DNA of 64,000 nt from Escherichia coli (lineage in GTDB: Bacteria; Pseudomonadota; Gammaproteobacteria; Enterobacterales; Enterobacteriaceae), in the NCBI RefSeq assembly GCF_024223415.1, contig NZ_CP100500.1; one strand, written 5' to 3'. A program made the position numbers and the translations under genes. Under the pieces are notes generated by a model. The model was not told where the DNA came from, did not search any database, and saw only the letters and a program-made list of their open reading frames with translations. Numbering within the stretch: the stretch's first letter is position 1; each line of letters opens with the position of its first letter. Below are positions 28,575 through 30,362 of this stretch, piece by piece.

Positions 28575-29891
28575 TTAAGACTTCGTCGATTTCTCAAAGC
28601 GGCGTAGTAACTGATTCCCACGCTCAACGGCGGTATCCAGCGCCTGCTGTGGCGTCTTCTTACCGGTCCACACGCTCTCAAGCTCTTCATCCACAATCGC
28701 TCTGATCTGCGGCATGTTGCCCAGACGTAGTCCTTTGGTGAACGGTAACGACGGTTTGTTCAGCATCTGACGTGTCGCGATATCCGCCCCTGGGTTTTTC
28801 TCATAAAAGCCCTGCTCACGGGTCAGGTCATACGCCGCTTTGGTGATTGGCAGATAACCGGTTTTCTGATGCCACTCGGCAGCATTTTCTGGCTTCGCGA
28901 GGAAGTCGAGGAACTTCGCCACGCCGGTATACGTTTCTTTATCTTTGCCCTGCATCACCCACAGGCTGGCTCCGCCGATAATGGCGTTTTGTGGTGCATC
29001 TTTCGCGTCAGCGTCGTAAGGCATCATGCCTACGCCGTAGTTGAATTTGGCGTACTCGCGAATGCTGGCAAGAGAACCAGAAGAGGCAGTCGTCATTGCG
29101 CAATCACCGTTATAGAACTTCTCGGTGGATTCATCCTTACGCCCGACGTAGCTGAAATCGCCTTTCTTGTTCATCTCTTCGAGCATGGCGATGTGTTTCA
29201 CCTGCTCCGGCTTGTTGAACTCCAGCACCGCATCTGTGCCGTCAAAGCCGTTGTTTTTGCTGGCAAACGGCAGACCGTTCCAGGCGCTAAAGTTTTCCAG
29301 TTGGATCCAGCCCTGCCAGCCGCTGGAGTAGCCGCACTTCATACCGGAGGCTTTCAGTTTCGCGGCATAGTCCGCCAGATCCTGCCAGGTTTTCGGCGGC
29401 TGTTCTGGGTCTAATCCTGCTTTCTTGAAAGCATCTTTGTTGTAATAGAGAACAGGAGTCGAGCTGTTGAACGGCTGGGAGAGTAAGTGTCCCGTTTTGC
29501 TGTCGGAGTAGTAGCCTGAAACCGTCGGCACAAACTGCGACTCATCAAAGTTAATCCCCGCCTCTTTAAACACGTCATACACCGGTTTAATGGCTTTCGA
29601 CGCCATCATGGTGGCGGTGCCAACTTCATAAACCTGCAAAATAGCCGGAGCGTTACCGGTACGAAATGCTGCGATCCCCGCACTTAAACTCTCTTCGTAG
29701 TTGCCTTTATAAGTCGGTATAATTTTGTAATCCGGGTTTTCGGCGTTAAAACGTTGGACCAGAGAATTCACCTCTTTACCCAGTTCCCCTTCCATAGAGT
29801 GCCAGAACGGAATGGTCGTCACTGCCTGTGCATTCCCCATTAACGTCAGTCCGAGCACCAGTGCTGAAGCTGTATAATGTAACGGTTTCAT
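28575..29891 (-). CDS. ugpB: sn-Glycerol-3-phosphate ABC transporter substrate-binding protein UgpB
   Basis: 438 aa, about 97% identical to remembered E. coli UgpB; no ugpAEC follow it, an IS110 remnant is there instead. Confidence 0.9.
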
Positions 29892-29991
29892 CGTTTATCT
29901 CTCTTGCTTGTTGTACCTGATGAGCGAATTCACACGTTTCATGCTCGTGGGATTAAATATCATGCCCGAATTGCAGAAAAATAACTTTTTT

Positions 29992-30031
29992 ATTACATGT
30001 GTTAGACAGTAAAGTGTTAGAAAGATGACAG
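29992..30031 (-). promoter_or_regulatory. Pho-box-like direct repeats upstream of ugpB
   Basis: Minus strand reads CTGTCATCTTTCTAACAC and CTGTCTAACACATGTAAT, matching the CTGTCAT-type PhoB consensus. Confidence 0.4.
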
Positions 30032-30362
30032 AGCAGTGACGGCACAGGTGAGACGTGGTGGATTGAATTTGATCCTGCTGTTGACAGTGAAATCCGCAAG
30101 ACATGTCCGGCAGTGATCGTGAGCAATGACGCAGCAAACAGGAACCTCGCTCGAGTAGTCGTCGTTCCTCTGACCAGTAACACAGAGCGAGTGTATCCAA
30201 GTGAGGCTGTTGTGACCGTAGGTGTCAGAGCAGCAAAGCGATTGTAGAGCAGATTATGGCGGCGGATAAGTCCTGTCTCAAAACACATATTGGCTCGTTG
30301 TCCAAAGCAGATATGTTGTCTGTTGAGGACGCAATCAAGATCCATCTTGGTTTACTGCGGTA
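30030..30362 (+). pseudogene. MazF/PemK-family toxin gene remnant
   Basis: Encodes ...WWIEFDPAVDSEIRKTCPAVIVSNDAANRNLARVVVVPLTSNTERVYPSEAVVTVG then shifts frame; no in-frame start; no antitoxin seen. Confidence 0.55.

Follow-up and report, generated by a model that had tools for sequence, protein, structure and literature searches.

A second, foreign-derived ugpB in a mosaic genomic island of Escherichia coli, parted from ugpAEC by an insertion sequence

Introduction

Genes for substrate-binding proteins (SBPs) that lack an adjacent permease or ATPase gene are known from HisJ/ArgT, which work with HisQMP, and from the streptococcal zinc SBPs (Thomas 2010, 'Homes for the orphans'), and orphan binding proteins of this sort can serve a permease that is encoded elsewhere (PMC7731109). 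UgpB, the periplasmic binding protein for sn-glycerol-3-phosphate (G3P), additionally has a stand-alone chaperone activity and confers bile resistance on overexpression (PMC8144458). The ugpB gene described here likewise stands without an adjacent permease or ATPase gene. Unlike the HisJ/ArgT-type orphans, however, it appears to be a recent xenologue that duplicates the resident SBP gene and arose via insertion sequence (IS) activity, rather than a diverged specialist.

The elements that adjoin this gene also have well-described relatives. REP elements are documented targets of IS110-family elements (PMC1525189, PMC11208160), and the element next to ugpB resembles the REP-targeting IS621 and ISPpu9 in its DEDD-type transposase and in having its left end inside a REP element. 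In contrast to those elements, it is dead and chimeric, and the second half of that REP is missing from its right flank. On the opposite side, the toxin domain of the MazEF/PemIK type II modules can be traced through 105 of 108 residues, whereas the antitoxin and the start codon are missing, one frameshift is present and a close intact relative is lacking.

Results

An intact ugpB lies between two decayed genes

The window, meaning the whole 64-kb stretch of DNA that was analysed, contains the following features around ugpB:

25737..27080, minus strand: phytase-like secreted-protein gene (PF13449, E = 5.4e-61), the downstream neighbour of the ugpB-IS110 unit
27187..28520, minus strand: IS110-family element, full length, dead and chimeric, with its left end abutting a broken REP element
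28521..28574, minus strand: remnant of the ugpB-ugpA spacer, ending in ...TGTAGGCCG within the second REP element, where the IS starts
28575..29891, minus strand: ugpB, intact, encoding a 438-aa periplasmic sn-glycerol-3-phosphate-binding protein with a signal peptide
29892..30052, minus strand: ugpB promoter fragment with a ribosome-binding site and a PhoB-box array (~29970-30042), homologous to the K-12 promoter
30047..30364, plus strand: MazF/PemK toxin pseudogene, first 3 codons absent, one frameshift near 30245, antitoxin absent
30365..30960, no strand: AT-rich non-coding stretch, ~33% GC by composition profile, which moves with the module
31083..31479, plus strand: transposase remnant, IS3-family in related genomes, which closes the conserved module

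The first-pass annotation of this DNA had described ugpB as intact, and this was borne out. The open reading frame list of the window gives a 438-aa ugpB frame free of interruptions, and the encoded protein scores 931.9 bits over residues 2-437 against the NCBIfam equivalog NF008211 (UgpB), a full-length match above the curated cut-off of 411 bits. It also matches PDB 4AQ4, the crystal structure of E. coli UgpB, with E = 1.3e-281. Compared to K-12 UgpB, the island protein is of equal length and 97% identical, with 13 residues different, and its signal peptide is present with the K-12 cleavage context retained. Tyr42, Trp172 and Arg374, ligand contacts of UgpB, are all unchanged. The same is true of Glu66 and Trp169, which are ligand-contact residues of UgpB (bioRxiv 10.1101/529602). 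Thus the island copy has in common with K-12 the signal peptide, the PhoB-box promoter architecture, the ribosome-binding site and the named ligand contacts, while two of the 13 amino-acid changes hit positions that are invariant across 83 orthologues.

The Pho-box-like repeats that had been noticed upstream of the gene proved equally sound. The 161 bp 5' of ugpB (29892-30052) show homology to the promoter of K-12 ugpB, and the pattern CTGTCATNNNNCTGTCAT has two overlapping matches on the ugpB strand (30014-30031 and 30025-30042), both of which fall within a series of 7-mers in 11-bp phasing that extends between 30042 and 29970. The 18-mer under the K-12 PhoB ChIP-seq peak, TGTCATCTTTCTGACACC (PMC10294691), occurs here as TGTCATCTTTCTAACACT, a match at 16 of 18 positions. 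Compared to the K-12 livF-ugpB intergenic region, the upstream part is absent from the island copy. One context has an IS1 located 16 bp upstream of the ugpB ATG and has lost the entire Pho promoter; since this genome still carries ugpB, the promoter is dispensable for carriage of the gene. A sigma-70-like promoter directed toward ugpB was matched once inside the mazF remnant (30281 to 30253) and was disregarded, because it is a single match against a chance expectation of 3.7.

The island gene is a second copy and not the native ugp locus

Homology to the ugp locus is limited to 1,533 bp, with window positions 28520-30052 corresponding to K-12 3590954-3592482 at 93.4% identity. Using blastn and tblastn, we found none of ugpA, ugpE, ugpC and ugpQ in the 64-kb window, nor any remains of livF in the window at the DNA or protein level, and 45-50 kb of two related islands were also free of ugpA/E/C/Q or livF remains. 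Rather than following the ugpBAECQ operon order, ugpB is succeeded by the dead IS110 element and then by the phytase-like gene. The claim that an IS110-family remnant replaces the permease and ATPase genes therefore stands, given the frameshifted transposase found there and the absence of ugpAEC from the 64 kb. Neither does ugpAEC lie just beyond the IS, where we looked for it, because the unrelated phytase-like gene follows the IS in every context examined; in all 10 distinct contexts listed for the exact UgpB protein, ugpA is absent beside it.

In complete E. coli genomes, core ugpB is near-universal, as is ugpAEC with 5,421 of 5,426. An island-type copy (at least 99% identity) occurs in ~204 of the 5,426, and core ugpB alleles are 93.5-95.3% identical to it. 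Altogether, 5,693 ugpB places were found in 5,424 genomes, none of them on plasmids. The island-bearing strain 135 combines the island ugpB with a full core ugpAEC elsewhere, and its core ugpB was likewise confirmed. In related complete genomes, the gene is thus an orphan SBP gene, with a transporter encoded elsewhere and none adjacent. As a separate observation, ~190 extra ugpAEC places are seen in E. coli genomes.

These data bear directly on whether the cell's only ugp locus had lost ugpAEC in situ through IS activity. The precise position of the IS at the expected start of ugpA would suit such a deletion, but the upstream neighbour is mazF and not livF, island DNA lies on both sides, just 1,533 bp are homologous to the native locus, at 93%, and carriers have two ugpB places, with intact ugpAEC elsewhere in strain 135. 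A deletion in situ is already contradicted for related complete genomes, and we consider it extremely unlikely here. Of the earlier interpretation, a stranded gene and an IS-caused loss of ugpAEC both hold, but not the idea that this is the cell's own ugp locus after deletion, since the locus is a second copy of 1.5 kb with 93% identity. The search for a second ugp operon had a positive outcome, as related genomes such as strain 135 have one elsewhere, so that the island gene is not the sole ugp locus there. Our results largely establish that the locus is a second, foreign-derived ugpB in a mosaic genomic island, where an insertion sequence separates it from the transporter genes it once preceded. 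Because each of the features listed above rests on strong homology, they lie beyond chance.

Both ends of the ugp segment are sharply defined

At the 3' end, the alignment to K-12 stops at 28520, where K-12 goes on with GATAAGCGAAGCGCATCCGGCA and then ugpA, and the window goes on with ATGTGATTGACATC. The breakpoint falls within the REP element of the ugpB-ugpA spacer, at the left end of the IS, and points to insertion of an IS110-family element at this site. A transposase pseudogene spans 28441 down to ~27440, and tblastn showed homology to aa 1-340 of an intact plasmid relative, with several stops and frameshifts; PGAP labels it 'IS110 family transposase, frameshifted; internal stop'. Nucleotide identity to the plasmid IS110 jumps at ~27820, with roughly 50% before this point and 85-100% after it, and in the 5' half of the IS the plasmid relatives reach at most 52% amino-acid identity. 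The IS borders half a REP element on the left and, on the right, an unrelated sequence that precedes the phytase-like gene. Judged by this switch, the IS is a hybrid, whose 3' third to half would come from another IS110 lineage in front of the phytase-like gene. We infer recombination between two IS copies from the same switch, which an unsampled natural mosaic IS would explain equally well.

At the 5' end, the neighbour had been called a decayed MazF/PemK-type toxin gene without antitoxin, and both parts of that description were upheld. The Pfam family PF02452 (PemK_toxin) is matched with E = 5.7e-21 over profile positions 3-108 of 109 once a single frameshift is bridged, and the remnant is 75-80% identical to 108-aa intact relatives, the best showing 80% amino-acid identity. 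DNA homology to intact mazF begins at 30047. In the intact homologue, an 87-aa antitoxin gene overlaps the toxin start, and tblastn with this antitoxin revealed no antitoxin remnant in the window (best match E = 2). The 5' break is a microhomology junction of 5-6 nt, three codons into mazF.

Beyond mazF, the module extends through the AT-rich stretch to the transposase remnant. A query with 30053-30960 was covered to at least 80% by 154 genomes, in which it is 99.7-99.9% conserved with the module. Sequence identical to 31083..31479 carries the PGAP label 'transposase, frameshifted, incomplete', in related genomes it falls within a longer, decayed gene annotated as IS3-family or DDE-type, and most related genomes match as far as 31477/31478. 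No Rfam family matched in the 27-31 kb region. Elsewhere in the window, Rfam has a sole match, at 42541-42657, to an IS3 ALIL pseudoknot.

The module belongs to a probable AGI-3-type island

In APEC E19035 (O2:K1:H5), the island starts beside adeD-adeQ-yicN-nepI-yicS-nlpA-yicL, on the selC side, and also bears carbohydrate PTS and LacI modules. AGI-3 (AY857617) has been described as a selC island for carbohydrate uptake that is common in ST95, and the APEC E19035 island resembles it in its selC-side position by yicL-nlpA and in its carbohydrate modules. We infer from this likeness that the island is probably of the AGI-3 type. The 64-kb window contains no tRNA gene, and its first 24 kb are just 94-97% identical to the best complete genomes.

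The phytase-like gene is tightly linked to ugpB. It lies 3' of ugpB at constant spacing in all 10 exact-UgpB contexts listed, bar IS2 interruptions, and together with the 3' part of the IS it is also found on plasmids, between two IS1 copies. Transcription from the ugpB promoter could in principle pass through the dead IS into this gene, making a Pho-driven phosphate-scavenging pair. The two genes share a strand and an invariant linkage, no terminator-like site is predicted between them on that strand, and both products are plausibly tied to phosphorus scavenging. Nevertheless, we regard such a pair as very unlikely: 1.5 kb of decayed IS separates the genes, IS2 lies between them in some genomes, plasmids carry the phytase-like gene without ugpB, and no Pho box was found before it when allowing up to 3 mismatches.

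The island protein appears to be maintained by selection

Divergence among island copies is 0.1-0.5%, and an intact 1.3-kb ORF is unsurprising in itself in copies so young. Eleven island copies, picked by nucleotide matches, encode one identical protein (WP_000803221.1), whereas the flanking IS110 and mazF are pseudogenes in every island copy. Among the 11 coding sequences there are seven segregating sites, all of them synonymous; under neutrality ~4-5 of the seven are expected to be nonsynonymous, giving P of about 2e-4. If the four haplotype-defining sites are treated as a single recombination event, three independent synonymous changes remain and P is about 0.04. In public assemblies, 5,224 indexed blocks contain the exact UgpB protein. 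On this evidence, selection appears to keep the island UgpB protein intact. Hence 'relic', the word used in the first reading of the locus, is too simple: the neighbours are indeed dead, but the protein is identical in all 11 copies, with seven synonymous polymorphisms.

Gene conversion from core ugpB was considered as the source of the synonymous polymorphisms and rejected, as two of the variant states are absent from all sampled core alleles and the variable sites are interspersed with others that have stayed island-specific.

The island branch itself shows a different pattern, with 11 private nonsynonymous versus about 17 synonymous changes, against totals of 8 nonsynonymous and 57 synonymous changes for five other Escherichia alleles (Fisher P = 0.005). 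A45V and P381S alter residues that do not vary among 83 Enterobacterales UgpBs, and A189S, Q67E and V58I alter nearly invariant ones. This excess would fit a period of relaxed constraint. As regards the donor, the genus Escherichia is represented among the matches listed by E. coli and E. albertii, and E. coli core alleles are as distant from one another as E. albertii is from them, so the donor can be named only as 'an Escherichia-type allele'.

Could the gene then be a neutral hitch-hiker, junk from IS rearrangements that makes no contribution to the cell and is still intact through the youth of the module and its clonal or horizontal spread? The low divergence of the module between genomes, the pseudogenes on both sides, the elevated N/S ratio of the island branch with its changes at invariant positions, and the variant that retains the ORF after IS1 took the promoter would all be expected of such a passenger. 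The polymorphism data speak against it, in that all seven coding-sequence polymorphisms are synonymous (P about 2e-4, rising to 0.04 when counted most conservatively), the copies that share one protein were sampled regardless of protein sequence, and thousands of assemblies contain the exact protein. Weighing these, we think neutral carriage possible, if on the unlikely side.

Alternatively, the protein could have been retuned after loss of its transporter, in its interaction with ligand or permease or as a chaperone, which would make its unusual substitutions adaptive. Of its 11 private amino-acid changes, four lie within 1-3 residues of ligand contacts, namely Q44E and N45S near Tyr42, A166S near Trp169 and V375A beside Arg374 (mature numbering), but UgpB orthologues differ freely at positions 45 and 375 and every contact residue named above is unchanged. 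Present-day purifying selection and the transport-independent chaperone activity already known for UgpB would accord with such retuning, which we nonetheless judge improbable.

Discussion

The most economical history of the locus would begin with an IS110-family element inserting into the REP element directly 3' of ugpB. Two IS110-family copies may then have recombined, joining ugpB to the phytase-like module with the loss of ugpAEC. On the other side, a microhomology junction would have fused the ugp promoter to mazF codon 4, removing mazE, the mazF start codon and the mazF promoter, with the mazF frameshift coming later. The outcome, largely established by our data, is a 1,533-bp Escherichia-type ugp piece, consisting of the Pho promoter, ugpB and 55 bp of spacer, that is fixed as an island module, while the host's own ugpBAECQ remains elsewhere on the chromosome.

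Since the PhoB boxes, ribosome-binding site, signal peptide and ligand contacts are kept, the island protein should be induced by phosphate limitation, exported and functional as a binder of G3P or glycerophosphodiesters. Its 97% identity to the resident UgpB makes it plausible that it docks on the resident UgpAE-C2 and raises the dosage of binding protein. In an alternative role, it may act through the transporter-independent, bile-responsive chaperone activity of UgpB. With moderate confidence, we favour an orphan binding protein under PhoB induction, which would work with the core UgpAEC, as a periplasmic chaperone, or in both ways. It would be a rather long shot to go further and regard the island UgpB as a periplasmic protein that is under selection and independent of the transporter in ExPEC associated with poultry and humans, substituted at otherwise invariant positions (A22V, P358S, A166S and Q44E, mature numbering) and kept either as chaperone capacity against bile and envelope stress or as a shifted-ligand binder feeding the core UgpAEC.

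Taken together, our results show that what looks like a crippled ugp operon is an accessory second copy, and carriers are for that reason not expected to be defective in G3P uptake. The gene is an ordinary kind of island passenger, and our understanding of these systems would stay unchanged. The locus nonetheless offers a worked example of island assembly, through IS110 insertion into a REP element, probable IS110-IS110 recombination and a toxin-disarming microhomology junction. If purifying selection holds across thousands of genomes, the island ugpB would further represent a natural orphan binding protein that is kept for dosage or chaperoning in gut and extraintestinal E. coli.

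An intact ugpB without its transporter genes

As the first-pass annotation had it, ugpB in the window is intact: the gene matches the Pfam domains SBP_bac_8 and SBP_bac_1, reaches 931.9 bits with the NCBIfam UgpB equivalog (cut-off 411) and matches the crystal structure of E. coli UgpB (4AQ4) with E = 1e-281. Local alignment of the K-12 ugp region with the window returned one homology block only, confined to promoter, ugpB and spacer.

Features at the island ugpB locus (window coordinates)
28575-29891, minus strand: ugpB, uninterrupted ORF of 438 codons
30052 to 28520: ugp homology block, equivalent to K-12 3592482 to 3590954, 93.4% identical over 1,533 columns
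Block, part 1: promoter, 161 bp
Block, part 2: ugpB CDS, differing from K-12 at 66 of 1,317 nt and 13 of 438 residues
Block, part 3: ugpB-ugpA spacer, 55 bp
From 30047, plus strand: MazF/PemK toxin remnant, PemK_toxin positions 3-108 of 109, one frameshift bridged near 30245
From 28441, minus strand: IS110-family transposase gene, starting ~80 bp past the end of ugp homology
27187-28520: dead IS110-family element, combining two lineages that change over sharply at ~27820
Past the right end of the IS: upstream region of a phytase-like secreted-protein gene (PF13449)

Divergence from K-12 ugpB is mainly synonymous (dS 0.20, dN 0.015, omega 0.07), and the ribosome-binding site and a signal peptide with the K-12 cleavage context are retained. 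Tyr42, Trp172 and Arg374, reportedly ligand-contact residues of UgpB (Wuttge et al. 2012), are conserved. So are Glu66 and Trp169, which have been named as ligand contacts (bioRxiv 10.1101/529602). Judged by its sequence, the island protein is a UgpB family member. The locus itself, as read from its gene content, is not a ugp operon, and no ugpA, ugpE, ugpC or ugpQ was found in the 64-kb window at the DNA or protein level.

A second copy in a mosaic island

A total of 164 complete E. coli genomes share the 4.6 kb around the gene (27000-31600), with 99.7-99.9% identity. Island-type ugpB at >=99% identity was found in 204 of 5,426 genomes, always on the chromosome and with many sources in poultry, humans and dogs. 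Some ugpB is present in 5,424 of the 5,426 genomes and ugpAEC in 5,421; core ugpB alleles share only 93.5-95.3% identity with the island one, and genomes with the island copy have at least two ugpB places. Strain 135 carries the island copy and, at another chromosomal place, a complete core ugpAEC. The earlier suggestion of a relic of IS-mediated deletion holds insofar as an IS lies at the ugpAEC break, but loss in situ at the native ugp locus is contradicted by that core ugpAEC. K-12 ugpAEC matched 5,614 places in 5,424 genomes, ~190 more than the number of genomes, and none of the extra places fell within the window or two related island loci examined.

In the avian pathogenic strain APEC E19035 (O2:K1:H5), the start of the island adjoins adeD-adeQ-yicN-nepI-yicS-nlpA-yicL, the selC side. 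This island contains CP4-like genes, a LacI/PTS/transketolase cluster, a YadA-like adhesin and a ManNAc-6-P epimerase/PTS/RpiR cluster, together with the phytase-like gene, the ugpB module and a TonB-dependent receptor. Compared by published description, it agrees with AGI-3, a selC-associated carbohydrate-uptake island of APEC BEN2908 (O2:K1:H5) that is common in ST95 (PMC3349570, PMC3325963, PMC9781279), and is probably the same island. No tRNA gene was found in the window. Over positions 1-24000 the best complete E. coli genomes align in several pieces with no more than 94-97% identity, as is typical of a mosaic island, whereas the ugpB module (27000-31600) reaches 99.9%; the island must thus be made up of modules that differ in age or origin. 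The ALIL pseudoknot family (Rfam RF01497) is matched over its full length at 42541-42657 (plus strand, 116 bits), marking the programmed-frameshift signal of an IS3-family element.

Pairwise differences between ugpB alleles (1,317-bp CDS)
Among E. coli core alleles: 24-73 nt
E. albertii against E. coli core alleles: 67-78 nt
E. albertii against the island allele: 80-81 nt
Island allele against core alleles: 61-86 nt

By these distances, the island allele is a deep Escherichia-type allele with no nameable donor; among the matches listed for species-representative genomes, Escherichia was represented by E. coli and E. albertii. E. coli core copies (loci L002, L006, L086 and L087) are up to 73 of 1,317 nt apart, as far as E. 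albertii (L007) is from them; for a core gene such polymorphism is unusually deep.

Boundaries of the ugp segment

The Pho-box-like repeats noticed upstream are borne out by two overlapping pattern matches on the ugpB strand (30014-30031 and 30025-30042), within a retained 11-bp-phased run of 7-mers. Beneath the K-12 PhoB ChIP-seq peak upstream of ugpB lies the 18-mer TGTCATCTTTCTGACACC (PMC10294691), whose window counterpart is TGTCATCTTTCTAACACT. In one locus, L104 (CP073976.1, 3272-4001), an IS1 ends 16 bp before the island ugpB ATG and has deleted the Pho promoter and the mazF remnant; a phage-type integrase gene lies near the ugpB-IS110-phytase unit of this locus. A single sigma-70-like match directed at ugpB (TTGAGA-17-CATAAT, 10/12, 30253-30281, minus strand) lies within the mazF remnant, fewer such matches than expected by chance for the region.

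K-12 ugp homology stops at 30052 and mazF homology starts at 30047. GGTGA(G), common to both, marks a microhomology junction, and no mobile-element end lies there. The toxin gene is decayed, as first described: it is 75-80% identical to 108-aa relatives, carries one frameshift and lacks only the first three residues. An intact homologue has an 87-aa antitoxin gene that runs 14 nt past the start of the toxin gene; tblastn with this antitoxin gave no match within the window. The junction event appears to have taken away antitoxin, toxin start codon and toxin promoter together, a joint loss consistent with an unopposed toxin being intolerable. Among complete E. coli genomes the remnant occurs in 223 (217 at >=99%), essentially only beside island ugpB and never intact. 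The toxin and IS genes can still be assigned to their families, but by sequence neither is intact.

On the other side, the K-12 spacer runs ...GCATCGCGTGTAGGCCGGATAAGCGAAGCGCATCCGGCA..., a REP element, then ugpA, while homology in the window ends at ...GTGTAGGCCG and gives way to unrelated sequence. Here, in place of ugpAEC, stands the IS110-family remnant that had been reported. An intact plasmid IS110-family transposase aligned by tblastn over its residues 1-340, in a frame interrupted by several stops and frameshifts, and PGAP calls a pseudogene in every related genome. Beyond the IS we found neither the other REP half nor ugpA, but the phytase-like gene region.

The IS is a chimera. In 60-nt bins, identity to the plasmid IS is ~50% from 28520 to ~27820 and then 85-100% to ~27190, while protein identity is 36% over residues 1-172 against 71-81% over residues 194-340; the 3' part is ~91% identical to a plasmid IS110-family element. 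For the 5' half, the nearest relative among 72,556 plasmids has <=52% amino-acid identity, and megablast-level matches in E. coli genomes lie only within the island. In the simplest history, one IS110-family element would have inserted into the REP after ugpB, a target known for this family (PMC1525189, PMC11208160), and then recombined with a related element before the phytase-like gene, with loss of ugpAEC. A possible alternative to such IS-IS recombination is a natural, still unsampled IS that is itself built as this mosaic.

The phytase-like gene is also carried by IncHI1B-type E. coli and E. fergusonii plasmids (for example L003, NZ_CP104510.1; window 25737-27996). These plasmid copies reach into the IS to 27996 or 27808, where they are cut by IS1; the longer ones span the chimera junction and are therefore descended from an already chimeric arrangement. 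Two IS1A copies flank the gene and the 3' part of the IS110 remnant, with ugpB absent, which looks like composite-transposon-style mobilisation of part of the module. In some genomes (L090, L100), an IS2 sits exactly at the right end of the remnant, with 27184-27189 duplicated, and parts ugpB-IS110 from the phytase-like gene.

Relic or maintained gene

The island branch carries 11 private nonsynonymous and ~17 synonymous changes, against 8 and 57 summed over five other Escherichia alleles (Fisher P = 0.005). Scored over 83 Enterobacterales UgpBs (precursor numbering), several fall at conserved positions.

Island-branch changes and conservation of the usual residue
A45V: 83/83 orthologues
P381S: 83/83
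A189S: 82/83
Q67E: 79/83
V58I: 76/83

These changes suggest a past phase of relaxed constraint, or adaptation. Polymorphism among island copies points in the opposite direction, to present-day constraint. The window and ten loci, chosen by nucleotide matches with ugpB, IS or mazF sequence and so blind to protein sequence, all encode WP_000803221.1 (11/11), and the seven segregating sites in the CDS are all synonymous third positions. Given ugpB composition, P is ~2e-4 for 6 transitions and 1 transversion all being synonymous, or ~0.04 if the four sites dividing the two main haplotypes count as one event. All 11 copies have dead IS110 and mazF genes at their flanks. The exact protein occurs in 5,224 blocks of public assemblies; where its surroundings were retrieved (10 of 10 distinct contexts), the gene is followed by the decayed IS and the phytase-like gene and in no case by ugpA. 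Counted per synonymous site (7 sites in ~289), ugpB is ~5x as polymorphic as the pseudogenes and non-coding DNA beside it (10 in 2,244 bp); gene conversion from core ugpB, considered as the source of this excess, gave no clean fit.

On balance we lean towards an island passenger with the origin set out here that is also functional, taken as a whole. A young neutral relic, with which relaxed constraint would agree and the all-synonymous polymorphism would not, seems rather unlikely. Even taken jointly, neofunctionalisation, in-situ deletion and transcription from the Pho promoter through to the phytase-like gene are improbable.

If the island passenger is functional, PhoB would induce it alongside the core operon under phosphate limitation and the protein would be exported. 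As an orphan binding protein, a role well known for other ABC importers (PMC7731109), it might then supply the resident UgpAE-C2 with G3P or glycerophosphodiesters; it might also, or instead, enlarge the UgpB pool working as a bile-responsive, transport-independent chaperone; for the chaperone, overexpression alone gives bile resistance (PMC8144458). Our literature search found no paper on a second, island ugpB; in thousands of genomes the sequence already bears the annotation ugpB. Orphan binding proteins, IS110-family insertions into REP elements, module shuffling by IS elements and disarmed toxin genes are known phenomena, and the island ugpB is of modest interest.
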